Shown here: positions 7,813 through 62,792 of the stretch, piece by piece
Layout: each line of letters begins with the position of its first letter
How positions within the stretch are numbered: position 1 is the stretch's first letter
NCBI GenBank assembly: GCA_030612725.1
Contig: JAUWNJ010000002.1
Location: 64,542-128,541 of the forward strand
Origin: Planctomycetales bacterium
Lineage (GTDB): Bacteria; Planctomycetota; Phycisphaerae; SM23-33
DNA: 64,000 nt
Direction: 5' to 3'
Made by a program: the position numbers and the translations under genes
Notes under the pieces: model-generated
Told to the model about the DNA's origin: nothing
The model's database searches: none
What the model saw: only the letters and a program-made list of their open reading frames with translations

Positions 7813-7872
7813 CGACCACGGCCAAGTCTTCGACTTGACCGTGCCACCCTGAAATTATCATGCTATAGTCCA

Positions 7873-17406: not shown

Positions 17407-17908
17407 TTTCTATTCCTTTTTCGACCGGGCAGTAATACCGCCGGAAACACACCAGTTCTTGCGGTATCGATAAAATCTGATCTGAAATCCTGTTTTATGA
17501 AACTCAACCAACGCATACGAATTTATCATCGACTCGACTACTGTCAAAGTGGTAATTGTCGCTTTTCTTATCCACATCAAGTCAAGCCTCGCTTGCAGAG
17601 AAACTTCCGAAGCAAAGTTTTTTTTCATTCACCGGTTATGCACAAAATTTCCACGAAGCGCGACCGTGAAAAGAAAAATTAGCAGGGATGCAGGGGATAA
17701 AGAGGATAAAACATCTTTTCAAAATTCAAACAGGTGCTTTTCTTCTTATTGAAATTCGCTTTTTATCCCGTGCATCCCCTGCATCCCTGCTAATTCTTTT
17801 CCCTGTATTCCTGCTGGTTCTTGAAAATTTGTTGTTTGACAATCGCCGTTCGAAAATCGACAATTGGCAATCGACAATCGGCAATTGGCAATTGAAGGAG
17901 TTTTTACA
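17407..17908. promoter_or_regulatory. putative oriC and dnaA promoter region
   Basis: Perfect DnaA box TTATCCACA at 17568-17576 and TTATGCACA at 17636-17644, plus 7/9 variants (TTATCCTCT rc near 17702, TTATCCCGT near 17766). A perfect 22-bp inverted repeat (17677-17698 / 17774-17795) flanks the AT-rich tract. Confidence 0.6.
17838..17895. repeat. tandem CAATYGRCAAT array in the 5' leader of the 17909 gene (family also at 19125-19160 and 46461-46504)
   Basis: gacaatcgccgttcgaaaatcgacaattggcaatcgacaatcggcaattggcaattg. Confidence 0.7.
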
Positions 17909-18573: not shown

Positions 18574-18648
18574 ATTGCGGATTGTGGATTGTGGATTGCG
18601 GATTGCACACACTCGCTGATTTGTTGGAATCCGCAATCCACAATCCGA
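18574..18648. repeat. inverted repeat built of GGATTGTGGATT units (terminator-like hairpin)
   Basis: Left arm tgcggattgtggattgtggattgcggattgc, right arm gaatccgcaatccacaatccg, about 20-nt loop. Starts 3 nt after the stop of the 17909 gene. Confidence 0.75.
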
Positions 18649-19047: not shown

Positions 19048-19184
19048 TTTCCAGTTTCCGATTTTCAATTGCGGTTGGATTCTGTGCTATCTTGACCGAC
19101 ATCAACACCCAGCGGAGAATTCCTGCGGATTGACAATCGACAATTGACAATCGGCAATCCCATAGGGATGCCTACGGCATTGAA

Positions 19185-28175: not shown

Positions 28176-28877
28176 ATGGTTATTTCCGGTTCTAATCCGT
28201 GGGGGCGGTTGAACAGCGGGCCTTTGATTGCGCCGTCGCTGCTGGCGTGTGATTTCGCGCGTGTCGGCGAGCAGGTTGACGCTGTCGTCGCCGCCGGGGC
28301 AGAGGTTCTGCACGTCGATATAATGGACGGGCATTTTGTACCGAATCTGTCGATGGGGCCTGGGTTCGTCAAGAGCATCCGCGCCTTTACCGATTGCCCG
28401 CTCGACGTGCATATTATGGTGTCCGACCCGCTTTATTTCGCCGAACGGTTCGCCGATGCCGGTGCTGATTCGGTTACTTTCCACATCGAAGCCGCCGATA
28501 AACCACGCGAAATAATAGATTTGCTTCGATGCCGAGGTTTGGGGGTGGGCGTGTCCGTAAAACCCACTACACAGGCCGGGGCGATTGACGGTATAATACA
28601 GGACGTCGATCTGGTATTGGTGATGACGGTCGAGCCTGGTTATGGTGGGCAGAAGTTTATGGAAGATCAGTTACCGAAGATCGAGCGGATTCGCTCCGTA
28701 CTTCGTCCTGAGCAGCGTCTCCAGGTCGATGGCGGGATTAATCCGATTACTGCCGCCCGTTGCGCATCCGCCGGTGCGGACGTATTCGTAGCAGGCGCAA
28801 ACATCTTTGGCAGCAGCAATATCGCCGAAGCAATAACTCTTTTACAGAATGTAGTTACAGAGAAAATAGATAAATAA
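28176..28877 (+). CDS. rpe: ribulose-phosphate 3-epimerase
   Basis: LIAPSLLACDFARVGE, HVDIMDGHFVPNLS, MTVEPGYGGQKF. Confidence 0.9.
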   Translation: MVISGSNPWGRLNSGPLIAPSLLACDFARVGEQVDAVVAAGAEVLHVDIMDGHFVPNLSMGPGFVKSIRAFTDCPLDVHIMVSDPLYFAERFADAGADSVTFHIEAADKPREIIDLLRCRGLGVGVSVKPTTQAGAIDGIIQDVDLVLVMTVEPGYGGQKFMEDQLPKIERIRSVLRPEQRLQVDGGINPITAARCASAGADVFVAGANIFGSSNIAEAITLLQNVVTEKIDK

Positions 28878-29152
28878 AAATCCAAAATACGAATATCGAA
28901 ATACGAAACAAATTCGAATGACCGAATTCTCAAAATCCGAAACGAACTTGGACAACCAAAATCCAAAACGAAAGCACTATGACCTTGAAGATCGAACCTT
29001 TGAGAAAACGAGCGTGTCGCTTTGGTTCAGGAAAGCACTGAACTGATGAACATTTTCGGTTCCATCCTTCGCAAGAGCGAATGATATTTTGAACATTTGA
29101 ATTTCGTATTTCGAATTTGTTTCGTATTTCGGATTTCGATATTCGGATTTAT
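28876..29152. repeat. MITE-like palindromic element, AATCCGAAA/ATACGAAA family, copy 1 (rpe|accD)
   Basis: Left arm aatccaaaatacgaatatcgaaatacgaaacaaattcgaatgaccgaattctcaaaatccgaaacg and right arm ...ttgaatttcgtatttcgaatttgtttcgtatttcggatttcgatattcggattt are imperfect reverse complements. About 150 bp core. No ORF. Confidence 0.8.
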
Positions 29153-34101: not shown

Positions 34102-34800
34102 TTAGAATTCGCACTCGAGGGCTGTTTTTTCCAGCCTGGCGAGTGTTTCGTTAACATCGGCGACTTCCAGCAGTCTTAACACCCGTTCGGGTCCGATGGG
34201 TCCGTCCGGTGGTTCAGGCGCAAGCGTGAAGGATAGTTTTCCGTCGTTCCCGCCTGACGACGATATGCCGATGCCGCCTATTTGTCCCTTGATGTCTATA
34301 AGTTTGTTTGGTTTATCATCGCCGGGGTTGCGACGGCGGGCGACTTCCCACTTTGCGGTCTGTTTCAGCGCCTCCAGACGGGCCTCTATTTGCTTCCGTT
34401 CGCAATCGGTCAATGATAATTCGTACGTTACCGCCTTGATTTTCGCCTTGGTCTTGTTCGGTAGCGGTTCGGTTTTTATCAGTTTCATTCCTTCGGGAAA
34501 CTGCTCGCCGAGGTGCAGACCCGGGTCTGACGCAGGTGAATCGGTTTTCAACTCGATTACCATCAATTCGCATCGGCTGCTTACGCCCACCGGGCGGGGC
34601 AGCGGCAGGGACAGTTTGGGACGGGGATTGAATCCTTCGGAGAATTTTATCGGTAGTCCGGCCCGAGCGGCTGAACGTTCGCACAGGCTCATCATGTTGC
34701 GGTGCGAGAGGAACCGCAAATCCCCCCCGACGGTGAACCACACCGCCCATTGCATTTTTGATTTTCGATTTTCGATTTTCGATTTTACCAGGGCGGACAT
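34102..34800 (-). CDS. DUF2344 (TIGR03936, radical-SAM-linked) family protein
   Basis: FTVGGDLRFLSHRNMMSLCERSAARAGLPIKFSEGFNPRPKLSL is the DUF2344 signature. The start may instead be the internal MQWAV at 34755; the first 15 codons run through a gattttc x4 tandem repeat. Confidence 0.65.
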   Translation of the reverse strand: MSALVKSKIENRKSKMQWAVWFTVGGDLRFLSHRNMMSLCERSAARAGLPIKFSEGFNPRPKLSLPLPRPVGVSSRCELMVIELKTDSPASDPGLHLGEQFPEGMKLIKTEPLPNKTKAKIKAVTYELSLTDCERKQIEARLEALKQTAKWEVARRRNPGDDKPNKLIDIKGQIGGIGISSSGGNDGKLSFTLAPEPPDGPIGPERVLRLLEVADVNETLARLEKTALECEF

Positions 34801-34851
34801 ACGGTATTCCGTTTTTTCAGTCCCTAATCCCTAGCCCCAAGTCCCTGTCTT

Positions 34852-36588
34852 TTAGTACGCTTCCGGCATCACTTCACGAATCTGGTTGCGCAGATAGGAG
34901 ACTATTTGTTTGTCTATATTTAATGTCGCCACATGCCGGGCGACCCGGCGGGCGTGTTCGATTGTTATTGAACGAATGACCTTCTTCAGTTCCGGTACAC
35001 TCGGCGGGGCCACCGAAAAAGTTCGCAGACCCATTCCCAGCAACAGAAGGATGTATTTCGGGTCGCTTCCCATCTCCCCGCAGAGCGAAACTCCTACATC
35101 ATATCGCTGTCCGGCGCGGATGACTTCCTTTATCAATCGCAGCACAGCCGGGTTGGCGGCAGTGAACAGCGGCGCGACCCGCTCATTGGTTCTATCGACC
35201 GCCAACGTGTACTGGATCAGGTCGTTGGTCCCGATTGAGAAGAAATCCACTTCCTGCGCGAACTGGTTGCACTGAAGCGCCGCCGAGGGGACTTCCATCA
35301 TCATCCCTACGGGCACGTCTGTGCGGACCTCGACGCCTTCTTCCTCCAGGTCTTCCATCACATCTCGCAGAATCATCTTTGCCTGGCGGAGTTCCATCAC
35401 CGTGGTAATCAGCGGGAACATGACTGATACCTCGCCTTTCATCGACGCCCGCAGAATTGCCCGCAACTGCGTCTTGAATAATTGCAGGTGCTGGAAGCAG
35501 AAGCGAATGCTTCGCAAGCCCAGGAACGGGTTTCGCTCCTGTATGAGCAAATGCGCCTGCGTGTACTTATCAGCGCCCAGATCGAGCGTGCGTATGCACA
35601 CGGGACGACCATCCATAGCCTCGATTACTTTGCAATACGCCTCGTAATGGTCCTCTTCGGTCGGTTCGGTTTCCTTTTCGAGGTAGAGAAATTCGGTTCG
35701 GTACAGCCCGACGCCCTGCCCGCCCCTGGCAAGGACATTCTCCGCTTCACTCGGAAATTCGATATTTCCCAGAAGCGTTATTTCATGCCCGTCCATCGTA
35801 ATGGCGGGTAAATCCCGCAGGCGATCCAGTTCGCGGGTGAATTCGACCTGGCGACGCAGGAATTGGCGATTTTCCTCTATGGTGGCTTCGTCAGGTTCGA
35901 TGATGACAAGGCCACGGTTACCGTCGATGATTACTATGTCTCCGGCGTTGACGGAAACGCTCACATCATTAAGCCCGACAACGGCGGGGATACCCAGAGC
36001 ACGGGCGACAATGGCGGTATGACTGGTCCGACCGCCGGCGTCGATTGCCAGACCCAGGATATGTTTGCGGTCCATGCTGGCCGTCTGGGAGGGCGTAAGG
36101 TCGTGGGCGAGCACGACTACGTCTTCGGTCAGGTGCCCAAGACCTTCCCTGCTTTCGCCGATTAATCGGCGGAGGATACGCTTCTCGACGTCATAGACGT
36201 CCTTGACTCTCTCTGCGAGATACTCCGGCATCTGGAGGAATTCCTTGGCGTACTCGCGCAGGACGGTGGCGACGGCGAATTCAGCCGTTACGCTTTCGGT
36301 TTTGATTTTGTCCCTGACTTTTTCCAGCAGGGCTTCATCGCCCAGCAGCGCAAGGTGGAAGTCGAAGATTGCTCCCGTTTCCTTTCCAAGCCGCTTGGCG
36401 GTGTTGTCGCGCAGTTCGGTCAGTTCTTCGCGTGCCCCAGTCAGGGCGTATTCGAGGCGTTCAGCCTCTTCGCCGGCGCGGTCGGCGCTTATATGCCGCT
36501 CGGGAATGCGATATTCCTCGGCATCCAGGACAACAGCCTGGCAGATCACCACGCCGGGTGAAACTCCGATGCCTTTCTTGATTTCCAT
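34852..36588 (-). CDS. ptsI: phosphoenolpyruvate-protein phosphotransferase (PTS enzyme I)
   Basis: Active-site His region GGRTSHTAIVARALGIPAVVG and a PEP-utilizing C-domain. Confidence 0.9.
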   Translation of the reverse strand: MEIKKGIGVSPGVVICQAVVLDAEEYRIPERHISADRAGEEAERLEYALTGAREELTELRDNTAKRLGKETGAIFDFHLALLGDEALLEKVRDKIKTESVTAEFAVATVLREYAKEFLQMPEYLAERVKDVYDVEKRILRRLIGESREGLGHLTEDVVVLAHDLTPSQTASMDRKHILGLAIDAGGRTSHTAIVARALGIPAVVGLNDVSVSVNAGDIVIIDGNRGLVIIEPDEATIEENRQFLRRQVEFTRELDRLRDLPAITMDGHEITLLGNIEFPSEAENVLARGGQGVGLYRTEFLYLEKETEPTEEDHYEAYCKVIEAMDGRPVCIRTLDLGADKYTQAHLLIQERNPFLGLRSIRFCFQHLQLFKTQLRAILRASMKGEVSVMFPLITTVMELRQAKMILRDVMEDLEEEGVEVRTDVPVGMMMEVPSAALQCNQFAQEVDFFSIGTNDLIQYTLAVDRTNERVAPLFTAANPAVLRLIKEVIRAGQRYDVGVSLCGEMGSDPKYILLLLGMGLRTFSVAPPSVPELKKVIRSITIEHARRVARHVATLNIDKQIVSYLRNQIREVMPEAY

Positions 36589-36598
36589 AATTAATTAG

Positions 36599-36682
36599 CG
36601 GTCAGCAATCAGCGTTCAGCAGTCAGCAATTAAGTGTGTTACTTTTTCTTTTACTGACCGCTGATTGCTGACTGCTGATTGC
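36599..36682. repeat. inverted repeat built of CAGCAATCAG units between ptsH and ptsI
   Basis: Left arm gcggtcagcaatcagcgttcagcagtcagcaat, right arm actgaccgctgattgctgactgctgattgc. The same unit family recurs at 60586-60709. Confidence 0.75.
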
Positions 36683-36690
36683 TCTTCTTC

Positions 36691-37506: not shown

Positions 37507-37549
37507 GGTAATTGGTAATTGGTAATCAGTAATTGGTAATTGGTAATCC
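37507..37549. repeat. tandem heptamer array (GGTAATT x6) in the ptsN 5' leader
   Basis: ggtaattggtaattggtaatcagtaattggtaattggtaatcc, 17 nt upstream of the ptsN ATG. Related arrays at 42240-42319 and 55186-55225. Confidence 0.75.
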
Positions 37550-42239: not shown

Positions 42240-42319
42240 GTAATTCGTAATTGGTAATTCGTAATTCGTAAAAAAACCGATGCTCTGTTACCAATTACGA
42301 ATTACCAATTACGAATTAC
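42240..42319. repeat. 27-bp near-perfect inverted repeat of TAATTCGTAATTGG units between ribH and nusB
   Basis: Left arm gtaattcgtaattggtaattcgtaattcgta, loop aaaaaaaccgatgctctg, right arm ttaccaattacgaattaccaattacgaattac. Confidence 0.8.
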
Positions 42320-42346: not shown

Positions 42347-42763
42347 GTGATTGAGCACCACAAAGCAAGGCTGATGGCGATGCAGGGTCTTTGTTGCCTG
42401 GACGTTCAGGGCGATGACGGCATGGATGCAACGCTGGGATTTTTCCGCGACGGTAAGGAAAGCCTCGAAACCACCGACGAGGCGGAATGCATGATTCGCG
42501 GCGTTCTTGCCGAAAGGAACGAAATCGACGAACTCCTCAGCGGGCAAAGCCGGCACTGGAAAGTCGCTCGCATGGGGCTTCTGGAGCGAAATATCCTGCG
42601 GCTGGCTGTTTGGGAACTACTGACAACCCACACGCCGAAAAAAGTCGTCATCAACGAAGCAATTCGCCTGGCGAAGGAATTCGCCTCGGCTGAATCGTCA
42701 AAGTTCGTCAACGGCGTACTCGATGCAACAGCGGAAAGAATCACAGAGAATAGTAGTCAGTAG
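42347..42763 (+). CDS. nusB: transcription antitermination factor NusB
   Basis: NusB fold: ARLMAMQGLCCLDVQ...ERNILRLAVWEL. Confidence 0.9.
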   Translation: MIEHHKARLMAMQGLCCLDVQGDDGMDATLGFFRDGKESLETTDEAECMIRGVLAERNEIDELLSGQSRHWKVARMGLLERNILRLAVWELLTTHTPKKVVINEAIRLAKEFASAESSKFVNGVLDATAERITENSSQ

Positions 42764-42965: not shown

Positions 42966-43886
42966 ATGGCGTTATTCAGGAAAACAATACAGCACCTTAC
43001 CGGCGGGTTGGCGCGGACGCGGAAGAAACTTATCGGTTCGTTGCGGTCGCTGCTGGTGGGGCGAAAAATAGACGACGATCTTCTCGATGAACTTGAAGAG
43101 CAGTTAATCCTCGCCGACATCGGCGTAACCACAGCGATGAGGATACGCGAGGACCTCCAGAACGCTTACAAAGAGAAAAAACTCCAAAGCGGCGACGAGG
43201 TGATAGACTTTCTCAAGTCCGAGATGAAGCAATACTGGCCTGAGGCCGACCGGAGCATTCATTTCGCCGAAACCGGGCTGACGGTGATCCTGGTAGCCGG
43301 GGTCAACGGTACCGGAAAGACGACCTCGGTAGCCAAACTGGCGCATTTGTTCAAGTCCGAGGGTAAAAAAGTCTGTCTCGCCGCTGCCGATACGTTTCGA
43401 GCGGCGGCTGTGGAACAACTGACTATCTGGGCTGAACGCATCGGCGTCGATATAATCAAGGGTTCTCGCGGTTCCGATCCCGCTGCCGTCGCTTTCGACG
43501 CCTGCGACGCCGCCATTGCCCGCGGCGCCGACGTCCTGCTGGTCGATACTGCCGGTCGGCTTCATACGCAGGACAACCTCATGCGCGAACTGGGCAAGAT
43601 TCGCAATGTAGTCGCCCGCAAAATCTCCAACGCTCCGCACGAAGTCCTGCTGGTTCTCGACGCGACCACAGGCCAAAACGCCATCAGCCAGGCGAAAGTC
43701 TTCACCGATACGATTGACGTTACGGGTATCTTCCTGGCCAAACTTGACGGCACCGCCAGGGGGGGAATCGTCGTCGCCATTCGGGACGAACTGTCCCTGC
43801 CGGTGAAATTCGTCGGTATCGGCGAAAAATACGAAGACGTCGAACCGTTCGACCCGGAATCATTCGTCGAAGCGCTGTTTAGTTAA
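42966..43886 (+). CDS. ftsY: signal recognition particle receptor FtsY
   Basis: NG domain: [31 protein letters not shown]. Confidence 0.9.
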
Positions 43887-43914
43887 AGGAAGGGTGTAGG
43901 GCGTAGGGCGTAGG

Positions 43915-46455: not shown

Positions 46456-46504
46456 GTCTTCAATTTCTTTTCAATTGGCAATTGAAAATCGGCAATTGGC
46501 AATC

Positions 46505-53387: not shown

Positions 53388-53531
53388 CTGTGTTCGCGTT
53401 TGCGCGCGCAAACGCGAACGTAAAAATCGGAGGAAATGAAAATTCCAAAAAAACTTTTCCCAAGGCCACCAAGGACTTATGGCGTCGCTATCCGTTTTGT
53501 GTTCGCGTTTGCGCGCGCAAACGCGAACGCA
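53388..53531. promoter_or_regulatory. two copies of a 33-bp direct repeat, each containing a perfect 28-bp palindrome, upstream of the PEP-CTERM protease gene
   Basis: gttcgcgtttgcgcgcgcaaacgcgaac at 53392-53419 and 53501-53528, 109 bp apart. They lie 136 and 245 nt upstream of the protease start. Confidence 0.6.
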
Positions 53532-53711
53532 AAAGTTAATACGGAGAGAATAGGGACTAGGGACTTGGGACTAGGGACTTGGAAAAAAGAAACAGATGGG
53601 CCGTTTAGGCAAGATGGGCAAAATAGGCAATGGCGGATTTTTTAAAATGGGCGTAAAAATGACACTAAAATACGCAAATCTATGCACGCCAAGGAGTTAT
53701 GGGTTTTGCAA

Positions 53712-53820
53712 TTTTTCCCAATTGTTCCGAATCGTTCCCAATCGTTCCGAATCGTTCCCAATCGTTCCCAATCGTTCCCAATTGTTCCGAATTGTTCCGT
53801 TTCGTTCCGTTTCGTTCCAC
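53712..53820. repeat. tandem array of about 11 copies of the 10-mer ATCGTTCCCA (variants ATTGTTCCGA, TTCGTTCCGT)
   Basis: Unit boundaries were read directly from the sequence. No spacers, so this is not CRISPR-like. Confidence 0.85.
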
Positions 53821-53892
53821 AACGGCGTGGCCCGATTCCGGTATCCGCCTGTGTGCGGCTCGAAAGAAGCGAGGGCCAGCCTGTCGCCAAAG

Positions 53893-54354
53893 TTACATAT
53901 CTTCGTGGTCAATAAGCATGAAGCCGCGTTTTGTCAATATCTGAGCGGACAGGACGTGGTCGTCGGTGTGAAAGACCAGCACCGGATAATCGTTGTGCCG
54001 GAGGAACAGCGGATAGGCAAACTGGATGTTCAGTTCGGCGGCAACGAGCGCCTTGCAGACCTGGCTGAGCGTGTCGATATCGTGCAATGCGACGGCCAGT
54101 ACGTCGGATTCGGTGAATGCCGCACCGGCGTCGATGAGTTTCACACGCGCCTTACCGACGTCGGTGAAGATCATGCGCACCACAGCCCAGTCTGCGGAAT
54201 CCACCACGGACAGACCTGCAATTTCAACGTCGGCTTCGTCCAGAGTAGTAAGCATCTTGCTCAATCTTCCGACGCGGTTGGGCATGAAGATATTGAACTG
54301 GCGGATGGACGGGGTTTCGTACGCTCGCTCGATTTGAGGTCCGGACATGGCCAT
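53893..54354 (-). CDS. ACT domain-containing protein (tandem ACT-like repeats)
   Basis: Two beta-alpha-beta-beta-alpha-beta-like halves, e.g. QFNIFMPNRVGRLSKMLTTLDEADVEI. Confidence 0.5.
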   Translation of the reverse strand: MAMSGPQIERAYETPSIRQFNIFMPNRVGRLSKMLTTLDEADVEIAGLSVVDSADWAVVRMIFTDVGKARVKLIDAGAAFTESDVLAVALHDIDTLSQVCKALVAAELNIQFAYPLFLRHNDYPVLVFHTDDHVLSAQILTKRGFMLIDHEDM

Positions 54355-54432
54355 AACGAGAGATACTATAACCTCAAAAGGTCTGAAAGCAAAGACAGCA
54401 AGAGATTTTTCTTTCAGCGGGTGATGGTTTTT

Positions 54433-55098
54433 TTAATGTATAAGCGCTTTTACGCCCAGCGCGATACCCATGACGGTTACTGCTACTCCGCATAGACCGT
54501 TGGCGATTCTGAAAAATGTCGGTCCGATTTTCTGCGGCCTGAGGCGGACAAGCACAGTAATGAAAGCGAACCAACATGTCATTCCACATGAAACGGCGGC
54601 TACTCCGAGCCACATTCCCACGCTTCCCGCTGATACATCGGCTCCCTGGAGCCAGGCCGGTCCGACTCCCACCCACCAGAGAAACGTGGCAGGATTCAGG
54701 AACGTCAGAATAGCGCCGGTCAAGAGGTCTCCCCCGACACCTGTGCGTCGATGTCGCATTCGTTCGGCGCGGATGGCGGCCTGGACTCGTCGGGACGGAA
54801 CAACCGCCTTGCGAAGGATGAACAGTCCAAGAAGCAGGATGATACAGGCAGCGGGCAGCTCCACGTACTGCCGGATCGAATCGACGTCCGTGTATTTCAA
54901 GAGCGTGCTTCCGCCCCACATCACCAGGACCACTTCGCAGGTTTCGAAGGCTACCGATCCGATACCGACCCACATGGTCCTCGTCCAGTGCATCACCAGT
55001 CCGCGACGAATGGCGATCATATTGACCGGACCGACGACGGGCGCCGCCGCCATCAGACCCAATCCGAACGCCCATGCTAGAACTAAAATACTCGGCAC
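54433..55098 (-). CDS. LysE/RhtB family amino-acid exporter
   Basis: Six TM helices and a LysE-type N-terminal motif. The overlapping 264-aa ORF in another frame is judged spurious. Confidence 0.8.
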   Translation of the reverse strand: MPSILVLAWAFGLGLMAAAPVVGPVNMIAIRRGLVMHWTRTMWVGIGSVAFETCEVVLVMWGGSTLLKYTDVDSIRQYVELPAACIILLLGLFILRKAVVPSRRVQAAIRAERMRHRRTGVGGDLLTGAILTFLNPATFLWWVGVGPAWLQGADVSAGSVGMWLGVAAVSCGMTCWFAFITVLVRLRPQKIGPTFFRIANGLCGVAVTVMGIALGVKALIH

Positions 55099-55294
55099 GT
55101 CTTTTTCGCTCCTGAAAAGTTCCGGCTATGCTAACCGCTGACGACACAATAAAAAAGAGCGAGTCCACGAATTACCCAAATTTTGTAAATCAGTAATTCA
55201 CGATTCCGTTACCAATTACCAACCCGCAGACTGTTTTTTCGATTTCGGAGGCGTTATGATGTCGGTACTGAAGTTTTGTGAGCAGCAGGGATGA

Positions 55295-56284
55295 ATGAGC
55301 GTGAAACTGTCTGGTAAGTATCAGAAGAGATGGGTTCTTGTCGGCTTGTGCCTTTTCGGTGTGGTGCTGATGCTTCCACCGGCGGGAAGTGTGCGGGGGT
55401 TTTGTCGTCGTGCTGCCCGTCCCGTTCTGGTTCCGATGAGTATCTTCGGCTCGCATGTTACCGTTCATCTTCGTTCGCGTATGGACGAAATGACGGTATC
55501 GTCGTCGTCCGACGCCGATGAGCGGGCCCAGGCCTTTCGCGGGCAGATACTACTGATGCGGCAGATGATCGAAGACCAGCGCCGAGAAATTCGGACGCTC
55601 ACTAATTGGAACGGTACACTTGAAGGATTCAGGTGCCGTCTGCTTCCCGCGCGCGTTATCGCCGCCGATCCTTTGTCGCTGCGCAACCGCCGACTTATCG
55701 GCGTCGGCAGTCGCAAGAGCGTCGGGCCTGGTGACCTTGTAACCACACGTCGGATAATTCACGAATCCGCCGCGCCGCTGCCGGACAAACTCACCGTCCT
55801 GGGACGAAATTACGTCGTCGGGTGCGTCAGTAACTCGTCAGTCTGTTCGGCGACGCTGACGCTTGTAACGGATCCGCATTTTAAGGCTTCAGCCAAACTT
55901 TGGCGCATGGTCGAGCCGGGCAGGCAGCGAACTATTTTTCTGACCGTCAAGACCGGCGGGGTGGAGAAGCGGACCTTCAAGCACAGCCGAACTACTCCCG
56001 GACCTGAACCTGTTGGGAATCCCATTCCCGTCGAGGCAATCGGTAACGGGCGTGAGGTCGTGCTGGAGCACGTGCCTTCCAATCACAACGTGCGAGCCGG
56101 GGACATCCTTACGTCGGCCGGTTCGTCGGGTCTGTTTCCCCTTGGTCTGACCATAGGCCGAGTCAGTCGGGTTGAACGGGACAAAAACGACGCCCATTTC
56201 GTTATGGTGTTTGTGGAACCCCTTGGAGATTTGCGGCGACTTCAAAATGTGTATATTGTTCTTCCTGATCGAGGTACGGATTGA
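55295..56284 (+). CDS. mreC: rod shape-determining protein MreC
   Basis: N-terminal TM helix, a coiled coil, and beta-barrel domains. It sits immediately upstream of mreD. Confidence 0.8.
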   Translation: MSVKLSGKYQKRWVLVGLCLFGVVLMLPPAGSVRGFCRRAARPVLVPMSIFGSHVTVHLRSRMDEMTVSSSSDADERAQAFRGQILLMRQMIEDQRREIRTLTNWNGTLEGFRCRLLPARVIAADPLSLRNRRLIGVGSRKSVGPGDLVTTRRIIHESAAPLPDKLTVLGRNYVVGCVSNSSVCSATLTLVTDPHFKASAKLWRMVEPGRQRTIFLTVKTGGVEKRTFKHSRTTPGPEPVGNPIPVEAIGNGREVVLEHVPSNHNVRAGDILTSAGSSGLFPLGLTIGRVSRVERDKNDAHFVMVFVEPLGDLRRLQNVYIVLPDRGTD

Positions 56285-56325
56285 TACTGCAACACAACTT
56301 TGTTTTTATGGAACAACAGGGATAT

Positions 56326-56456
56326 GCGAAATACGAATATCGAAATCCGAATGTTCAAAACATCTACGGTAAGACCTGCCGGACGGTGTTTTGGAGATTC
56401 AAATTTGGGTCATTTGATATTGTTTTGAATTTCGAGATTCGGATTTCGGATTTAAA
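56326..56456. repeat. MITE-like palindromic element, AATCCGAAA/ATACGAAA family, copy 3 (mreC|mreD)
   Basis: Left arm gcgaaatacgaatatcgaaatccgaatgttcaaaacat, right arm atattgttttgaatttcgagattcggatttcggattt. Confidence 0.75.
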
Positions 56457-56534
56457 AAACTTGCACAAGGCAATTGATTACAGCGTTTTACAGACAAAAT
56501 CCTTTGCCAAGTTGCATCGTGGGATTAAATAACA

Positions 56535-57074
56535 ATGAGATGGTATCATTTTATAATTCTGGTGTTTGTCGCTGTGGTTGGCGTTGTCGTGCAATCGACG
56601 GCGGGGCAGTTGTTGTGGTTTCGCACGGAGTTAGGATGGGTCGGCCCTGAACTGCTCGCAGCGGTGGCAGTGTTCATAGCATTGTATGCCACAAGCGCTA
56701 CTGATGCGGCATTGTCCGGGTGGATACTGGGATTCGCGGTGGACCTGAGCGTCGGTGGATCGAGCATGGGATTGTTGGCGTTGCTGTACGCTGCCGGTTG
56801 CTGGGGGATATTCCGCATTCGGGAGGTCTTTTTCCGCGACCGGATGATGACACAGATAATCATTGGGTTTATTTTTTGCGTGTTTGTTTATGAATTGTGG
56901 ACGGTCTATGACATCATGGTCGGCGGAAGGGCGTCTGGTGAGTATTTCCGACCGGCCCTTCAGGCATTGGGATTGTCGATTTATACTGCGGTGTTGACTC
57001 CTCCGGTATGTGCGCTGTTAAAACGCCTGCGAGGATTTGTGCTTCCCATGCCGCCGATTCGTGAAAGAAGATAA
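56535..57074 (+). CDS. mreD: rod shape-determining protein MreD
   Basis: Five-TM small membrane protein between mreC and mrdA. Confidence 0.75.
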   Translation: MRWYHFIILVFVAVVGVVVQSTAGQLLWFRTELGWVGPELLAAVAVFIALYATSATDAALSGWILGFAVDLSVGGSSMGLLALLYAAGCWGIFRIREVFFRDRMMTQIIIGFIFCVFVYELWTVYDIMVGGRASGEYFRPALQALGLSIYTAVLTPPVCALLKRLRGFVLPMPPIRERR

Positions 57075-57077
57075 TTA

Positions 57078-59018
57078 ATGTATGAGCGCCGCCTGAAAAT
57101 ATTTCTGATAGTGGTGGTGGTCGCCATATTTGTAATCGTAGGCCGGCTCGCCCATTTACAGTTGATCCAGGGTGAGCAATACCGCCGCCGGGCGGGTGAA
57201 CTGCTGATTTACGGTAATTTGCTTCCGACGGTTCGGGGAAAGATACTGGACCGCATGGGGCGGGTGTTGGCTTACGACAAACCTTGCTTTGATTTTTGCC
57301 TGGACTATCGCATGTTGAAGGGCCCTGGTTCGACCGCCGCTGAGCGCAGGGCCTACAAGCGTTGGGTCCGTGGCCGGGTTCGTGAAATACGCAAGCGCGA
57401 GAAGGTTTCCAGGCAGCGGGCGGAGGAGATTTTCGAGCGTCGCTACGAGCAGACGTGGGAACTGTCAGCCGAACTGACCGGGGCGACGCGAAACGAGATA
57501 TTCCGCAAAGCCGAGAATGCCGTTCGCCGCATCGAGGCGATTCGACGCGGCGTCGGCGGACCGATTCGAGAGGAGAACCTCGCCCATGCCGTGGTTCCGG
57601 GTCTGAATGAAGCCACAGCAGTGAAGGTCAGGGCGCGTCTCGACGAGATGATCGGCGCTTCGGTTCACCCGTCGCATCAACGATGGTATCCACGCGGACA
57701 TGATGCCTGTCACATCGTCGGGCGGCTCAGGCCGTTGAAGGCCGAAGAGGTCCGCCAGGCCCGCGCAATATGGAAAACCGATGTCCCCATAGAGGCGAAA
57801 TTGGCCGGTAATCTCTCCGGCGACCTTGTCGGTTCCGTCGGTATCGAGAGGCTTTGCGAGGGTTTGCTTCGAGGAAGCAGGGGATATCGTCGTGGCCGGC
57901 GAACCGGTCGGATGCTCAATGAAGTTCATGCCCGCTTCGGTTCGGACGTGCATCTTACGATTGATATTGAACTTCAACAGGCATTGGCCGGTCTCCTCGG
58001 CAGGCCCGGCGCGATCGTGGTACTGGACGTTCCGACCGGAGAGGTGCTGGCGATGGTGTCGCTTCCGACCTATGACGTGAACACCTACCGGCGCGAGTAT
58101 GACCGGCTTAGCAGGGACCAGGTTCGTCTGCCGTTGTGGGATCGGACAGTGGCGATTCGTTATCCGCCCGGTTCGACGGTCAAGCCCCTGGCTGCACTGG
58201 CAGGTCTTGAGACCGGCGTAATTACGCCGGAGAAAACATTTCACTGCAAGGGATACCTTCACAACCCCCATGCCTTCCGCTGCTGGATATGGAAGTATCA
58301 CCGGGGGCACGGCGATTTGAACGTGGTAGGCGCTCTTGAGCAGAGTTGCAACGTATTTTTCTACAATGTTGGTGAACGCCTTGGTGTTCGGCGTCAGGTT
58401 GAGTGGTTGGGTAAGTTCGGTTTTGCCGACAGGCCGGGAACGCTGCTGCCGGGGGAGCGCAAAGGGCTATTGCCCGATCCCCGTCGCGTTCGTAACGTCG
58501 GCGAGGCCCGTCAACTTGCCATTGGTCAGGGGCAGGCAGAAGTAACGCCCATGCACGTAGCCAACGCCATGGCGACTATCGCCCGCGACGGGGAGTTTCG
58601 CTCGCCGCTGCTGGTGCGAGAGTTGAAGAGCAAGCAGCAAGTCCGTCGCATTCCGGTATCGGCTGAACACTTCAGACTGGTGAAGGAGGGGTTATATAAG
58701 GTTGTCAATTCCCCTCATGGCACTGCCTATAAGCATGCACGTGATACTGATATTGAGATTTGCGGTAAGACGGGCACAGCCGAGACGCCTGACCGGCGGA
58801 TCAGGATTGATTCCGACGGCGACGGGAAACTCGACCGCTGGGGGCCGGCTGTTTGCACCGGCGACACCGCGTGGTTCGCCGGTTTCGCGCCGTATCGAAA
58901 TCCGCGAATCGCTTTCGTGGTGATGATCGAATACTCCGACACCGGCGGCGGGCAGACTTGCGGACCGATTGGGAGACAGGTCGTAAGACTATGCCGGGCC
59001 TTCGGGTATCTGAAATGA
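57078..59018 (+). CDS. mrdA: penicillin-binding protein 2 (peptidoglycan D,D-transpeptidase)
   Basis: Transpeptidase motifs STVKP, SCN (EQSCNVFF) and KTGTA, with an N-terminal TM anchor. Confidence 0.9.
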   Translation: MYERRLKIFLIVVVVAIFVIVGRLAHLQLIQGEQYRRRAGELLIYGNLLPTVRGKILDRMGRVLAYDKPCFDFCLDYRMLKGPGSTAAERRAYKRWVRGRVREIRKREKVSRQRAEEIFERRYEQTWELSAELTGATRNEIFRKAENAVRRIEAIRRGVGGPIREENLAHAVVPGLNEATAVKVRARLDEMIGASVHPSHQRWYPRGHDACHIVGRLRPLKAEEVRQARAIWKTDVPIEAKLAGNLSGDLVGSVGIERLCEGLLRGSRGYRRGRRTGRMLNEVHARFGSDVHLTIDIELQQALAGLLGRPGAIVVLDVPTGEVLAMVSLPTYDVNTYRREYDRLSRDQVRLPLWDRTVAIRYPPGSTVKPLAALAGLETGVITPEKTFHCKGYLHNPHAFRCWIWKYHRGHGDLNVVGALEQSCNVFFYNVGERLGVRRQVEWLGKFGFADRPGTLLPGERKGLLPDPRRVRNVGEARQLAIGQGQAEVTPMHVANAMATIARDGEFRSPLLVRELKSKQQVRRIPVSAEHFRLVKEGLYKVVNSPHGTAYKHARDTDIEICGKTGTAETPDRRIRIDSDGDGKLDRWGPAVCTGDTAWFAGFAPYRNPRIAFVVMIEYSDTGGGQTCGPIGRQVVRLCRAFGYLK

Positions 59019-59036
59019 ATGAAATCATTACGCAAA

Positions 59037-59200
59037 ATTCGAATATCGAAATCCGAAATTCGAAACAATATCGAAATACAAATGACCAAAATCCGAAACA
59101 TAAATACACAAACATTTTCAATGTTCTGTGTTTGGGACATTAGAAAATTCGGATTTTGAATTTGTTTCGTATTTCGAGATTCGTATTTCGGATTTAAAAA
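59037..59200. repeat. MITE-like palindromic element, AATCCGAAA/ATACGAAA family, copy 4 (mrdA|rodA)
   Basis: Left arm aaattcgaatatcgaaatccgaaattcgaaacaatatcgaaatacaaatgaccaaaatccgaaac, right arm aaaattcggattttgaatttgtttcgtatttcgagattcgtatttcggattt. Internal hairpin aacatt-ttc-aatgtt. Confidence 0.8.
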
Positions 59201-59263
59201 AGTGGTTAATGTAATTGGCTATGATGATTTATACATGAGAAACCTTTGTAAAGTTGTGCTGTC

Positions 59264-60580
59264 ATGTTCGGATGGTTGAAGACATATTTTCGCGGAATTA
59301 GTTGGCCTATCATTGTGGCGATGGGCGCTCTGATGGTTATCAGTGTCCTTTCCGTCAGGGTGGCTGAACAGGCCGATCCGTCTGATGCGCTGTTGCGAGG
59401 AAGCACGGTCCGGCAGATGGTTTATGTCTCGGTGGGCGTTGCCGGCTTTATTATCGCGACGGTCATCCCATACCAGCGAATCGGGCGGAGCGCGTATTTC
59501 TTCTTCGCGCTGAACCTGGCGTTGCTGGTTCTTGTATTGTTTCTGCCGGCGATTCGGAACAGCCACAGGTGGATTAATCTGAAGTTCTTCAAGGTCCAGC
59601 CAAGCGAATTGGCCAAGTTGACCTACATCCTTGCCCTGGCGTGGTACCTGCGATACAGGGATAATTATCGCCGATTCTTCGGGTTTCTCCCCCCGTTTAT
59701 ACTAACGTTGGTGCCTGCGGTGTTGATCCTGGTTGAGCCGGACCTGGGCACGACGCTTCTGTTGTTTCCCACGTTATTTTTCATGCTCTTCATGGCCGGT
59801 GCGAAACTCCGCCATCTGCTGCTGGTCGTCGCTATCGCCGGCGTTGTGATATTCTTCCCCGTACCCCGAAACGTTACAGACCAAAATCCTTCGGTTATCG
59901 CTGAGCGGAATGTTCTGGCGTACTGGCATGGTAAGATCGGCGGGCGGGAGTATGTTATCTCGGCTGCTCCGTTGACGATTATGAAACACCATCAACTTTC
60001 CCGCATCGAAGGTTGGCTATTGCAGCCTGACCCGCTTGTGGAAGTGAGCAGAAGCAAAGGGTTCCAACTCCAGAACTCGATAATCATTCTCGGCTCCGGC
60101 GGGTGGAGAGGTCAAAACGTGCTGGAGCAGAAAAACCTCTATTTCCGCATGTTACCGGACGACCACACCGACTTTATATACGCAATCATCGGCGGCGAAT
60201 GGGGGTTTCTGGGATGCGCGGGTGTGATGCTGATTTATATGGCGATTTTCTTCTGCGGCACCGAAATCGCCGGAACGACCGACGACCCCTTTGGCCGACT
60301 TCTGGTGGGGGGGGGGTTGGGGCTGTTGCTGGCGCAGGTACTGATTAACGTCGGTATGACAATGGGACTGGCGCCTATTACCGGTATGACTCTTCCTATG
60401 ATCAGTTACGGCGGTTCAAGTATGCTGGTCAACTGTGTCGCGATGGGGCTGTTGATAAACGTCGCTCAACGAAGACCTGTTCTTCTAGGCCCAAAACCGT
60501 TTGAATACGGCAGCCGAGCCGGCGGCGAATCTATGTCCTACGGACCTTTGTTCGAATGGGGACGAAGGCGAAAAAGGTAG
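59264..60580 (+). CDS. rodA: SEDS-family peptidoglycan glycosyltransferase RodA (with extended periplasmic loop)
   Basis: FtsW/RodA 10-TM pattern. About 70 extra residues lie in the large loop compared with typical RodA. Confidence 0.85.
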   Translation: MFGWLKTYFRGISWPIIVAMGALMVISVLSVRVAEQADPSDALLRGSTVRQMVYVSVGVAGFIIATVIPYQRIGRSAYFFFALNLALLVLVLFLPAIRNSHRWINLKFFKVQPSELAKLTYILALAWYLRYRDNYRRFFGFLPPFILTLVPAVLILVEPDLGTTLLLFPTLFFMLFMAGAKLRHLLLVVAIAGVVIFFPVPRNVTDQNPSVIAERNVLAYWHGKIGGREYVISAAPLTIMKHHQLSRIEGWLLQPDPLVEVSRSKGFQLQNSIIILGSGGWRGQNVLEQKNLYFRMLPDDHTDFIYAIIGGEWGFLGCAGVMLIYMAIFFCGTEIAGTTDDPFGRLLVGGGLGLLLAQVLINVGMTMGLAPITGMTLPMISYGGSSMLVNCVAMGLLINVAQRRPVLLGPKPFEYGSRAGGESMSYGPLFEWGRRRKR

Positions 60581-60585
60581 AAAAA

Positions 60586-60709
60586 GCGATCAGCGATCAG
60601 CAGTCAGCAAAAGATGAAAAAGACCGCTGTGCGTCACGTAGTGATGCTACGCATAGCACCGCGTAGCGATACTACGTACCACTACGTGGAACGCTGATTG
60701 CTGATTGCT
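60586..60709. repeat. nested hairpin element (outer CAGCAATCAG-unit stem, inner cacgtagtg/cactacgtg and gctacgc/gcgtagc stems) between convergent rodA and the downstream gene
   Basis: Left arm agcgatcagcgatcagcagtcagcaaaag, right arm gaacgctgattgctgattgct. Inner palindromes were read directly from the sequence. Confidence 0.75.
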
Positions 60710-60714
60710 AAATG

Positions 60715-61134
60715 TTAATGATGTTGAAAATAATAAATCCACCATATTGCTGAAACCAACGTGTAGGTCAGGAATAGACCCCAGCATCCGATTTCGGTGA
60801 ACAGGCGTTTGCGAAATTTGAGAATGATTATCGAAGCCATGGCTACAACGAGAATCTTGAAGATTACAAGCAGGGCAACATCGTTCATTAGAGGAGCGGC
60901 GATTGGATTGGCCTCTATGAACCCGCCGGCCTTGACAGCCATCAGGGTGAATACCAGGTCGAAGACGTTGACTATCCATAGCATCACGAGTATGAGAGTT
61001 ACTCGTCTGGAACGCCGCGCGTACGGATCTTCACGGGCCTGTTTGAACCACCTCCACAATCGCGCGAACAGCGACCCTCTCCGGGCGGGACCAATTCGTA
61101 TAATGGTTTGGTCTCGTTCCATAGAATCACGCAT
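60715..61134 (-). CDS. small membrane protein (DUF5658-like)
   Basis: TM helices with a D-L-x-x-T...GG-x-E-x-NP-like motif (FDLVFTLMAVKAGGFIEANP). Confidence 0.45.
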   Translation of the reverse strand: MRDSMERDQTIIRIGPARRGSLFARLWRWFKQAREDPYARRSRRVTLILVMLWIVNVFDLVFTLMAVKAGGFIEANPIAAPLMNDVALLVIFKILVVAMASIIILKFRKRLFTEIGCWGLFLTYTLVSAIWWIYYFQHH

Positions 61135-61181
61135 CGGCGGTGTACCTTATAGGGTTTAACTCTAATTATATGGATTAATAG

Positions 61182-62069
61182 GTGTCTGATTCAAAAAAAA
61201 TAACATTTGCGAACCGACTTGCCGACGACGTGCGTGTAACGCACGAAATGCTGAAACTACCGGACGGGCAGGAGACGCCGGTGTTGCATCATCATCCTTC
61301 ACAGAAGGTAGGCGTTCCGGTTTTGTACGTTCATGGTATCCAGTCTCATCCCGGATGGTTCACCGGTTCCGCCCAGATGCTGGCACGCGCCGGCAGCGAG
61401 GTTTTTCAGGTAACACGCCGAGGAAACGGAACATCGCCAACCCGAAGGGGCGATGCCGCCTCGGCTGAACAACTCCTCGGCGACGTCAATGCCGCGGTAA
61501 AGTATGTTCTGGAACAAACGGGGAATAAACGCCTCGCACTTCTGGGCATCAGTTGGGGCGGGAAACTGCTGACGGCATACGCCCTGCGGGCCGACGTGGA
61601 TAATATTGATTCACTGACGCTTGTCGCTCCGGGCCTGAAACCGCTGGTGGATGTCTCGATAGCGACCAAACTGGCCGTACTGTTGGCCTTGATTTTCAGG
61701 CCCGGGACGTATTTCAAAATTCCGCTCAATGACGTGTCTCTTTTTACGGACAATCCTGAAATGCGTGAGTATTTGCGTAACGACCCACACCGTCTTCATC
61801 GCGCCACTGCGCGATTTCTGTTCGCGTCAGCCATGATTGACCGGATTATTGCTCGCGCGGACGAACGGACGCTGAAGGTTCCGACGACGTTAATCCTGGC
61901 CGGTCGGGACCGCATCATCGACAACGAATCCACCTGCGATCTGATGGAATGGTTGGCTGACAGACCGGTGCGAGTTCGCCTGCTTGATGCTACTCATACC
62001 ATAGAGTTCGAGCGGGAAAAGGGGGCCTTCTACGAGATACTTTGTCAGGCCGTTGGGGAAGAAAGATAG
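61182..62069 (+). CDS. alpha/beta hydrolase (lysophospholipase-like)
   Basis: Nucleophile elbow GISWGG and an HG oxyanion motif (VLYVHGIQSH). Confidence 0.8.
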   Translation: MSDSKKITFANRLADDVRVTHEMLKLPDGQETPVLHHHPSQKVGVPVLYVHGIQSHPGWFTGSAQMLARAGSEVFQVTRRGNGTSPTRRGDAASAEQLLGDVNAAVKYVLEQTGNKRLALLGISWGGKLLTAYALRADVDNIDSLTLVAPGLKPLVDVSIATKLAVLLALIFRPGTYFKIPLNDVSLFTDNPEMREYLRNDPHRLHRATARFLFASAMIDRIIARADERTLKVPTTLILAGRDRIIDNESTCDLMEWLADRPVRVRLLDATHTIEFEREKGAFYEILCQAVGEER

Positions 62070-62088: not shown

Positions 62089-62700
62089 AAAGAAGAAGAA
62101 AAGGAATAGCAGGATTACAGGGATTACCGGATTACAGGGATTTTTATTTTTGCTGAAAAAAGAAGAGGAAAAAGAAAGGCAGGGGGATTGCAGGGATTGG
62201 TTTTAATTCTCAAATCTTCTTACTTGCAAAGAAGACGAGCCGAAATTTATCAGCAGCGCAACCAGCAACCTGGAGGCTTTTAAGTAACTGATAGTCTGTG
62301 CTCGGTGCTCCTTAATCGTATCGACAACGGCCTTCAGTTCGACAATAACCTTTCCTTCAACAACCATGTCAGGCCTGTATGTACCACAAAGCATTCCCTC
62401 GTAAAAAACTTCGAATTCACGCTGTGACTCAAATGAAATTCCTGTGAGCATCAATTCCTTGGAAAGCGCTTTGTGATATGTCGATTCGGTGAAACCGGCG
62501 CCAAGCGTTCCGTGAACTTCATGAGCGGCCCCGATAATGTTATAAGTAAGTGCGTTAATGGGATCGTCAGCGTCCAAACCACCCCGAACACCAACAACAC
62601 CCCCGACTTCTTTTTCTGTTTCTTTTGTTCCTTTTAACAAAATAAAAATCCCTGTAATCCGGTAATCCCTGTAATCCTGCTATTCCTTTTCTTCTTCTTT
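62089..62700. mobile_element. cassette: GxxExxY gene bounded by a perfect 62-bp inverted repeat, abutting the 3' end of tRNA-Ser
   Basis: IR-L at 62089-62150 is exactly the reverse complement of IR-R at 62639-62700 (aaagaagaagaaaaggaatagcaggattacagggattaccggattacagggatttttatttt). Extra GGGATTG/CAGGGATTGG motifs at 62071-62086 and 62180-62199. Confidence 0.7.
62203..62640 (-). CDS. GxxExxY family protein (PD-(D/E)XK-like)
   Basis: YNIIGAAHEVHGTLGAGFTESTYHKAL (the GxxExxY motif), then ...VELKAV...LINFG. TTG start immediately adjacent to IR-R. Confidence 0.85.
   Translation of the reverse strand: MLKGTKETEKEVGGVVGVRGGLDADDPINALTYNIIGAAHEVHGTLGAGFTESTYHKALSKELMLTGISFESQREFEVFYEGMLCGTYRPDMVVEGKVIVELKAVVDTIKEHRAQTISYLKASRLLVALLINFGSSSLQVRRFEN

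Positions 62701-62707: not shown

Positions 62708-62792
<85 letters not shown>

Follow-up and report, generated by a model that had tools for sequence, protein, structure and literature searches.

Several classes of short palindromic or repetitive sequence are found between bacterial genes. The REP and REPIN elements of Escherichia coli and Pseudomonas are mobilized by RAYT tyrosine transposases, which are IS200/IS605-like. Correia and ERIC elements are both co-transcribed; the Correia hairpins are cut by RNase III, and ERIC modulates decay. Heptamer repeats termed STRR occur in heterocystous cyanobacteria. We have analyzed a stretch of 64,000 nucleotides of DNA (the window) from a Planctomycetales bacterium (assembly GCA_030612725.1, contig JAUWNJ010000002.1, positions 64,542 to 128,541), in which a palindromic repeat that we term copy 3 lies between mreC and a putative mreD gene. 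The criterion for a REP is a GTAG or CGTC tag at one end of the palindrome (PMC3733652), and the features of Correia elements have been summarized (PMC4853749). MITEs, the miniature transposable elements with inverted repeats, occur in phages as well as in chromosomes, and about 97% of their clusters are genus-specific at 95% identity (PMC11602168). Intergenic heptamer arrays are found across distant phyla, in Beggiatoaceae, Cyanobacteria and Bacteroidetes, where they are unexplained (PMC4679880), and likewise in Xanthomonas and Nostoc (PMC4692102). They are sometimes inverted, and their distribution over distant phyla is puzzling (PMC4679880, PMC4692102).

Copy 3 was inserted recently, and belongs to a family of palindromic repeats that are small, AT-rich and non-coding. 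We regard it as a mobile passenger and not a built-in regulator, because the insertion is lineage-specific and the family is found in at least three phyla and in a Mu-like phage. It is probable that copy 3 is a non-autonomous mobile repeat of REPIN/MITE-like character, co-transcribed as a hairpin and uncoupling the translation of mreD from that of mreC. The features of the junction are these.

56278-56284, plus strand: GGATTGA, at the end of mreC, left member of an imperfect direct repeat
56285-56528, no strand assigned: insertion block of 244 bp, from the MAFFT alignment with relatives L001-L004 and tblastn coordinates
56285-56323, no strand assigned: left flank of the insertion, 39 bp, unique, between the mreC stop codon and copy 3
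56324-56454, no strand assigned: copy 3, the family palindrome, an end-to-end match to a family profile built without window sequence
56455-56528, no strand assigned: right flank of the insertion, 74 bp, comprising an A6 run, a small hairpin and a tail
56522-56528, plus strand: GGATTAA, right member of the imperfect direct repeat, followed by ATAACA at 56529-56534

The relatives are metagenome-assembled genomes (MAGs) of Planctomycetales/Planctomycetaceae (L001-L007), obtained from a scan for PBP2 with one genome per species; the identities of their PBP2 to that of the window include 90, 82, 74, 62 and 47%. The gene order mreC-mreD-mrdA-rodA is common to all seven. In L001-L004 mreC and mreD are 2-7 bp apart or overlap, with no repeat between them, compared with 250 bp in the window. 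The first-pass annotation of this DNA had stated that the two genes are normally tightly coupled, and these four relatives agree with it. Its proposal that the spacer be compared with those of relatives led to a clear result: none of these four has a spacer of equivalent length. The extra sequence is an insertion, because in the four relatives mreC and mreD abut without a repeat. Judged on the aligned sequences, a single gain in the lineage of the window is more parsimonious than three or more losses. The block sits exactly after the mreC stop codon and leaves both reading frames intact. In the alignment with L001-L004 the ancestral junction, ...GGTTGA followed by ATGACAATG, is split at GGATTGA, and the ATAACA preceding the mreD ATG is the ancestral 6-bp mreC-mreD spacer, which has been retained. 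A search for the same MreD with an empty site gave one public contig only, identical to the window. The public Logan contig L131 corresponds to window positions 53823-59090 with 100% identity. It ends within copy 4 of the family and begins beside an array of 10-nt units, and therefore the assembly breaks at repeats.

The family copies of the window have in common the 18-mer CGAATATCGAAAYMCGAA, which, with one mismatch allowed, occurs seven times there against an expectation of zero. Scanning metagenome contigs for the 18-mer gave at least 120 loci, and the family profile (alignment A3) was made from 51 metagenomic copies, with no window sequence included. With this profile nhmmer finds exactly four copies in the window and matches nothing else there. 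Copy 3 is matched at model positions 4-150 of 157 with E = 1.7e-21, scoring 73 bits on the minus strand and 64 on the plus strand. Its outer arms comprise the heptamers AAATACG AATATCG AAATCCG ... CGAGATT CGGATTT CGGATTT. They have the family pattern of CGAAATN heptamers with ends AAATYCG / CGRATTT that fold back on each other. The center (56362-56386) is richer in GC. Copy 3 is a short variant, with reduced inner arms and one extra heptamer in the right arm. The RNA of 56300-56480 has a predicted folding energy of −50.8 kcal/mol, compared with −36.0 ± 3.5 kcal/mol for dinucleotide shuffles (z = −4.2; none of 200 as stable). A 130-bp family palindrome within a 250-bp mreC-mreD spacer had been noted at first pass at 56326-56456. 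The external profile and the folding energy both uphold it, and the profile places it within 2 nt of that position.

The sequences on either side of copy 3 are of a different kind. The left flank has no BLAST match in the window, in the relatives or among the metagenome loci listed (at least 120), and the right flank has none among those loci. The tail of the right flank is weakly similar to that of copy 4, with a score of 17 compared with 6.5 ± 3.2 in shuffles (5 of 500 as high), and it scores 26-28 against L001 and L002. The GGATTGA/GGATTAA repeat, with its one mismatch, bounds the 244-bp block and not the family element. When the entire spacer is folded, TGCAAC (56288-56293) pairs with GTTGCA (56511-56516) to form an outer stem, GGCAA (56469-56473) pairs with TTGCC (56504-56508) in the hairpin of the right flank, and no pairing is predicted for the 15 nt that immediately precede the mreD ATG.

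Among the listed metagenome loci 107 have family matches. At least 82 of the listed matches are near-full-length copies of 111-187 nt (median 148), lying on contigs of 35-65% G+C, and about 25 loci among them have a single arm only. The family consensus reads AAATYCG, three further CGAAnnn heptamers, AAACAA, an inner arm (AATGACCAAAATnCAAATGnCCAAAAC), a variable center and then the mirror image. Each arm has four CGAAATN-type heptamers, the hinge CGAAACAA and an inner arm with a periodicity of 7 nt. The number of heptamers before the hinge is exactly four in 87 of 118 arms. The arms end in AAATYCG, with A at positions 1-3 in >90% of the 118, and the termini are sharp. Beyond them we find no conserved flanking motif other than a preference for A/T at position −1. 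The arms are about 81% complementary, and the only open reading frames (ORFs) are read-through of the arms. The family has the terminal inverted repeats, small size and lack of coding capacity by which MITE-type elements are recognized. It is apparently undescribed. The element appears neither in Rfam nor in the papers on REPs (PMC3733652) and MITEs (PMC11602168), and a full-text literature search with six of its 13-mers gave only chance matches in primer lists. A blastn search with copy 2 against plasmid and phage collections gave no match, for which the low-complexity filter is a possible reason.

The family lies predominantly between co-directional genes (41 copies), with 8 copies in convergent and 2 in divergent contexts. 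Copies mostly fill the spacer, and often start <20 nt beyond the upstream stop codon. The flanking genes have housekeeping functions, including recA, mreB, pfk, lspA, ftsY/SRP54, hemB and that for DAHP synthase. The window, L001 and L002 represent Planctomycetaceae hosts. In the listed metagenome loci no protein is >53% identical to window proteins. The RecA of locus L096 is 87-89% identical to proteins of Syntrophaceae/Deltaproteobacteria MAGs (Desulfobacterota), and the phosphofructokinase of locus L017 is 87% identical to a protein of Desulfatiglandales. At locus L035 a neighboring protein has 90% identity, over a partial match, with a protein from a Rhodothermales MAG, and 70% identity with one of Rhodocaloribacter litoris. 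In IMG/VR the 18-mer is present on nine contigs, seven of which have full-length copies. One of these contigs, L137, is clearly Mu-like; it encodes Portal_Mu, Mu F, Gp36 and virion morphogenesis proteins, and has a full-length copy (6379-6545, 113 bits) between two co-directional structural genes. From these neighboring sequences the family is present in at least three phyla and in a genome resembling that of a transposable phage. Convergence of simple repeats is not credible, because the match spans the non-repetitive hinge and inner arms.

Two of these loci have copies in noteworthy positions. At L096 a copy (1631-1766) lies directly upstream of recA, and at L017 there is one copy on each side of a single phosphofructokinase gene (15-176 and 1724-1891). 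Many of the close homologs of the L096 RecA (P0001-P0014) are annotated with 374-389 amino acids, compared with 342-347. This suggests that the upstream repeat has been called as coding sequence, giving the N-terminus LLLFRISIFGFRI...

The folding of the family as a whole does not have the character of a conserved RNA structure in one orientation. Comparison of sense and antisense folding stability gives a ratio of 23:19 (p = 0.5), with no bias, and orientation relative to the flanking genes is random (20:16). RNAalifold retains only the invariant CGAA/TTCG cores. Compensatory covariation is absent; when arm pairing is imposed it amounts to 81%, compared with 83.9 ± 0.4 after shuffling of the partners, and the covariation score is lower than that of all 500 shuffles. 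An internal loop of 3x3 nucleotides, formed by columns 25-27 and 176-178 of A3, is unpaired in about 43 of 51 copies. The heptamer AATATCG on one arm never faces AATATCG on the other, though perfect pairing would result. Each arm is thus conserved as a sequence distinct from the other, and a 3x3 internal loop is built into their pairing, which argues for recognition by protein and not for a maximally stable RNA helix. The sequences point to a possible readout by protein either of two distinct ends or of a marked strand within a folded single strand. We also considered insertion into pre-existing hairpins, and rejected it as a general rule. The complementarity of the flanks is just slightly greater than in the null, at −10.2 compared with −9.25 ± 0.4 kcal/mol, and they fall under the 5th percentile of the null in 13% of cases.

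How does the family compare with the described systems? Like REP and REPIN sequences, its members are extragenic palindromes in co-directional or convergent contexts just past stop codons, with inverted halves that form a long hairpin and with single halves as well (the solo arms above). They share the lack of a target-site duplication, and presence that varies between relatives. When transcribed in operons REPs can stabilize the upstream mRNA, and we infer that the present family is also transcribed. Unlike REP units, which are 20-40 nt and GC-rich, the family arms are about 60-70 nt and AT-rich; they end in AAATYCG without the GTAG/CGTC tag, and the family is found across phyla, in contrast to REP families, most of which are confined to a species or genus. 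The Correia (NEMIS) elements of Neisseria and the ERIC/IRU elements of enterobacteria are similar in being imperfect palindromes of 100-170 bp inside operons, with filled and empty orthologous sites. Yet they duplicate a TA target and have defined inverted terminal repeats of 26 bp, whereas the family has no abutting duplication. Correia elements also carry an IHF site. The arm of our family is made wholly of heptamer modules, and its hosts span phyla and not one genus or family.

Prokaryotic MITEs are alike in being small, non-coding, AT-rich, intergenic and multi-copy with terminal inverted repeats. In contrast to them, the family lacks a target-site duplication, no parent insertion sequence with the same ends has been found, and it is common to three or more phyla at roughly 80% identity. 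The tandem heptamer repeats (STRR, the TAACTGA of Beggiatoaceae, Cyanobacteria and Bacteroidetes, (GGGANTN)n) share the 7-nt unit and the intergenic location, and often have four units. They differ in being simple direct arrays in which a single unit is repeated a variable number of times, whereas a member of the family has a length of ~150 nt, sharp ends, a fixed number of units that are not identical, a hinge and inner arms. Integron attC sites are also imperfect palindromes (60-140 nt) placed after stop codons between co-directional genes, with conserved unpaired bases that make the strands distinguishable. But the family consensus lacks the R''/R' GTTRRRY core, there is no integrase, and the flanks are core genes in conserved order and not cassettes. 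Taken by analogy, the absence of target-site duplication, the conserved mismatches and the half elements resemble single-strand (HUH-type) systems such as REP/RAYT more closely than DDE-type MITEs. The family might be the organized end of the heptamer repeats (STRR, TAACTGA, GGGANTN), with simpler arrays as its debris or by-products. It is unlikely, if conceivable, that it constitutes a new class of hairpin element, built of heptamer modules with an asymmetric loop marking the strand, inserted near stop codons without target-site duplication by an enzyme specific for single strands, and carried between phyla by Mu-like phages.

These comparisons suggest how copy 3 might act. The operon would still be read through and transcribed as the unit mreC-mreD-mrdA-rodA, because its four genes run in one direction, the LysE-family gene upstream diverges from them, and there is no promoter or terminator site beyond chance. 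With the operon read through, the element would therefore be part of the mRNA, where it would fold into a long imperfect hairpin. The insertion would abolish the translational coupling of mreC and mreD, so that mreD would need an initiation of translation independent of mreC. The hairpin may alter the stability of its mRNA segment, as do REP, ERIC and Correia elements, and by the same analogy might be a barrier to exonucleases or a target for RNase III/E, shifting the MreC:MreD stoichiometry, and processing of the transcript at the hairpin is possible. Co-transcription and cleavage of Correia type are suggested just by the co-directional position and the predicted hairpin. Mobilization of the family presumably occurs in trans, through an enzyme that does not duplicate the target site. 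A dedicated regulatory role for the mre operon is not supported, and nothing indicates that the element has been recruited.

A number of observations weigh against this interpretation. No transposase family is found among 94 ORFs flanking copies. Nor did we find a parent insertion sequence, as a long form enclosing an ORF, within about 0.7 Mb of context, and no RAYT gene was seen in the sampled flanking ORFs or the scanned ORFs of the window. Abutting repeats of ≥3 bp are present at the ends of none of the 35 precisely delimited copies, and in a second test for target-site duplication the level of k-mers shared by copy flanks was that of the permutation null. Because there is no target-site duplication at the termini, a mechanism of the DDE type, as in classical MITEs, is unsupported. 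Within the insertion the family element is surrounded by 39 + 74 bp of unique flank. The insertion is composite, because only 56324-56454 belongs to the family, and the event may have occurred in two steps, or by recombination instead of clean transposition. Both arms are roughly 80% conserved across phyla, and the internal loop is kept; this could reflect a function for the host and not pure selfishness. The RNA of copy 3 alone is 14 kcal/mol more stable in the sense than in the antisense orientation (predicted energies of −45.8 and −31.4 kcal/mol), and a strand difference of ≥15 kcal/mol is found in just 5% of family members. As a modeled difference at a single locus this is a weak hint of selection at the RNA level. 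Finally, we infer both the co-transcription and the effect on expression.

The conservation of the arms leads to the alternative that survives best, which we nevertheless consider rather unlikely. The element might have been domesticated as a binding platform, in the form of either DNA or RNA, for some conserved protein of the host that recognizes units of 7 nt, and would have spread because it is useful. Candidates would be a nucleoid, topoisomerase or cold-shock-type protein; REP/BIME sequences bind gyrase and IHF. The CGAA/TTCG cores that are invariant every 7 nt, the fixed arms of four units, the conserved 3x3 loop, the avoidance of AATATCG opposite itself and the extent of conservation over phyla would all be consistent with this, as would the heptamer arrays of many sequences that crowd the spacers between genes in these genomes. 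The binding of CspB, with one protein to each heptamer, has been discussed (PMC4679880). Yet no candidate protein has been found, presence or absence varies at orthologous sites of close relatives, and half elements and copies in a phage exist. A binding platform is compatible with mobility, so this explanation and that of a mobile repeat are not exclusive.

We think it less likely still that the hairpin is a selected cis-regulatory RNA, i.e. a processing site, attenuator or stabilizer that sets the ratios of MreC, MreD, PBP2 and RodA. The strong predicted hairpin might be so explained, as might the greater stability of the sense strand of copy 3, which has five G-U pairs compared with one. 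Two family copies and a third hairpin flank the genes of this one operon, and REP, ERIC and Correia sequences are known in general to affect the fate of mRNA (PMC3733652). But four relatives have the same operon without the element between mreC and mreD, and unrelated repeats occupy other junctions of the relatives. The family has neither orientation bias nor compensatory covariation, it has no U-tract, matches to terminators and promoters are not beyond chance, and it is found in unrelated operons of three phyla.

There is very little to recommend an origin in place, by heptamer slippage followed by palindromization to give a local microsatellite hairpin. Period-7 arrays of at least 12 different units dominate the tandem repeats of the window, the arms of copies differ by whole heptamer units, and slippage has been given as the explanation for the excess of heptameric repeats in bacteria (PMC4692102). 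The idea is largely refuted by the match of copy 3 to a profile from other phyla over 147 positions including hinge and inner arms; the termini are moreover sharp and the number of units fixed, and the 244-bp block appears at once when compared with the four relatives. Least credible of all is a small protein or independent small RNA gene in the spacer, since the 83-codon ORF across 56281-56532 (a gene caller gives a 74-amino-acid product in the L131 spacer) is read-through of the repeat arms that is missing in all relatives, translated elements are low-complexity peptides such as the RecA N-terminal extension, and there is neither an Rfam match nor a promoter or terminator signal beyond chance.

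The mobile-repeat interpretation can be set in the context of the whole gene cluster, the genes of which are as follows.

55295-56284, plus strand: mreC, Pfam MreC with E = 7.5e-20; the stop codon TGA is 56282-56284
56535-57074, plus strand: putative mreD, 179 amino acids, a membrane protein with about 5 hydrophobic segments
57078-59018, plus strand: mrdA (PBP2), Pfam Transpeptidase with E = 1.5e-65 plus PBP_dimer
59264-60580, plus strand: rodA, Pfam FTSW_RODA_SPOVE with E = 1.5e-78

All four are co-directional, and the upstream LysE-family gene is divergent. The gaps are 250 bp between mreC and mreD (56285-56534), 3 bp between mreD and mrdA and 245 bp between mrdA and rodA. The match of mreC to TIGR00219 is under the cut-off of that model, and there are orthologs in L001-L007. 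The putative mreD is kept between mreC and PBP2 in the same seven genomes with 39-96% identity, and has no match in Pfam, NCBIfam or the sequences of the PDB. For this reason the name mreD is positional only; the protein in this slot is a divergent MreD or a lineage-specific substitute. A scan of 55000-61200 for promoters and terminators gave no excess over shuffles, and none inside the element. The spacer has no terminator-like site, and the plus strand continues after the element with A6 and not a U-tract. Searching the whole window with Rfam at gathering scores, tRNA alone passes, and nothing relevant is found in 56200-56600 at E up to 10.

The remaining family copies of the window, and the hairpin that follows rodA, are as follows.

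28877-29152, no strand assigned: copy 1, nhmmer match end to end, 78.7 bits
42761-42929, no strand assigned: copy 2 (nhmmer), flanked by nusB (42347-42763) and a gene for an SRP54-type GTPase (42966-43886), both identified with Pfam
59030-59199, no strand assigned: copy 4, nhmmer match of 110 bits, between PBP2 and rodA
60585-60709, no strand assigned: nested hairpin unrelated to the family, folding energy −62.2 kcal/mol, after rodA

The neighbors of copy 1 are genes for ribulose-phosphate 3-epimerase and an acetyl-CoA carboxylase carboxyltransferase (Pfam). Its center (28944-29080) holds about 130 nt of unrelated sequence, and judging by this copy the element apparently tolerates or acquires inserts at its apex. 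Copy 4 is orthologous in L001 and L002 and missing in L003, where the gap between PBP2 and rodA is about 8 bp. Compared with the window, the segment enclosed by the CGAAACAA/TTGTTTCG hinges has the opposite orientation at the L001 site (4026-4199), and the outer arms are collinear. This flip/flop inversion indicates recombination between the arms. That copy 3 might be a recent duplicate of copy 4 was rejected, as the two copies are far more diverged than is copy 4 between genomes.

Other junctions of the cluster are occupied by other repeats. The outer arms of the hairpin after rodA comprise AGCGATC/AGCAGTC heptamers around a GC-rich core, and TRF identifies period-7 arrays at 60585 and 60693. 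Between mreD and mrdA L001 has a 257-bp hairpin of another dispersed family (1827-2083) with AGAAGAT direct repeats of host sequence at its borders, further copies of which are found at L001 7857-8001 and L003 11010-11225. At the corresponding position L003 has a 142-bp GC-rich hairpin of a third kind (5860-6000), bounded by the host direct repeat GTGAAAGAAG.., part of which hairpin matches window 7816-7859. Both of these hairpins lie directly after the mreD stop codon (TAG followed by CAG...). The first-pass annotation placed a further copy before rodA and a nested hairpin after it, and both were found. It stated that the cluster is interrupted wherever a junction lacks translational coupling. 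This is correct in that repeats or a hairpin are present at those junctions, but it reversed cause and effect, since the junctions are uncoupled because repeats were inserted. The link to the morphogenesis cluster that it implied does not hold. Different junctions hold different repeat families in relatives, family members separate unrelated housekeeping genes of three phyla and also occur in the Mu-like phage, and there is neither orientation bias nor compensatory covariation.

The window is generally rich in heptamer repeats. Its tandem repeats have predominantly a period of 7, 14 or 21, forming 23 arrays, of which 19 are in intergenic DNA (15% of the sequence) and four at ORF edges. Heptamer arrays are found in 11 of 42 spacers of ≥50 bp, with at least 12 different units, and often form hairpins. 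The period-7 excess is also present in L001-L003 and the metagenome loci, even when family copies are subtracted. Units include CAATTGG, ATTGCGG, GACAATC, ATTTTCG, AGCAGTC, TTGGTAA, GTAATTC and AGGGCGT, and examples of arrays are found at 17855-17894, 18574-18646, 19129-19158, 34754-34786, 36593-36683, 37508-37548, 42240-42319, 43891-43914, 46472-46503 and 60585-60709. Arrays of GGGACTT/GGGACTA/GGGATTA lie at 20162-20191 and 53545-53587, and in reverse complement at 34821-34858. These G-rich arrays fit the (GGGANTN)n pattern of Xanthomonas, and are also similar to the GGGGA(C/T)T repeats of Nostoc (PMC4692102).

Other repeats of the window are of different kinds. About 10 tandem units of 10 nt (TTCCCAATCG / TTCCGAATCG) occupy 53715-53818. 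They lie close to the beginning of an ORF of 299 codons (53596-54495), for which Pfam gives no match. Upstream of position 53596, the divergent region has two copies of the GC-rich perfect palindrome TGTGTTCGCGTTTGCGCGCGCAAACGCGAACG, at 53389-53425 and 53495-53531, 106 nt apart. An ORF on the minus strand (62203-62640) encodes a 145-amino-acid PD-(D/E)XK nuclease of the GxxExxY family (PF13366, E = 2e-37; TIGR04256). It is flanked by 94-nt inverted repeats (62089-62700) that are 84% complementary, with 9-mers GGATTACAG, and adjoins a tRNA gene on the minus strand (62708-62792). This nuclease was considered as a mobilizer of the family and rejected; L001 retains it at the corresponding site (93%), L002 does so in part, and it is missing from the listed metagenome loci.

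Tight mreC-mreD coupling is dispensable in the planctomycete of the window, and operon junctions in its lineage have been repeatedly colonized by hairpin repeats. Such repeats mislead gene callers, giving spacer ORFs and extended RecA N-termini, and break assemblies. This one insertion is in itself of modest interest; the family is of more, by reason of its architecture, its asymmetry, the lack of target-site duplication and its spread. A non-coding element of ~150 nt with about 80% identity over Planctomycetota, Desulfobacterota, Rhodothermales and a Mu-like phage is unusual, and the ends of the family, its missing target duplication and its conserved internal loop fit no known scheme of mobilization. 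The mobilizing enzyme, if found, could explain the spread of heptamer-based repeats across distant phyla.

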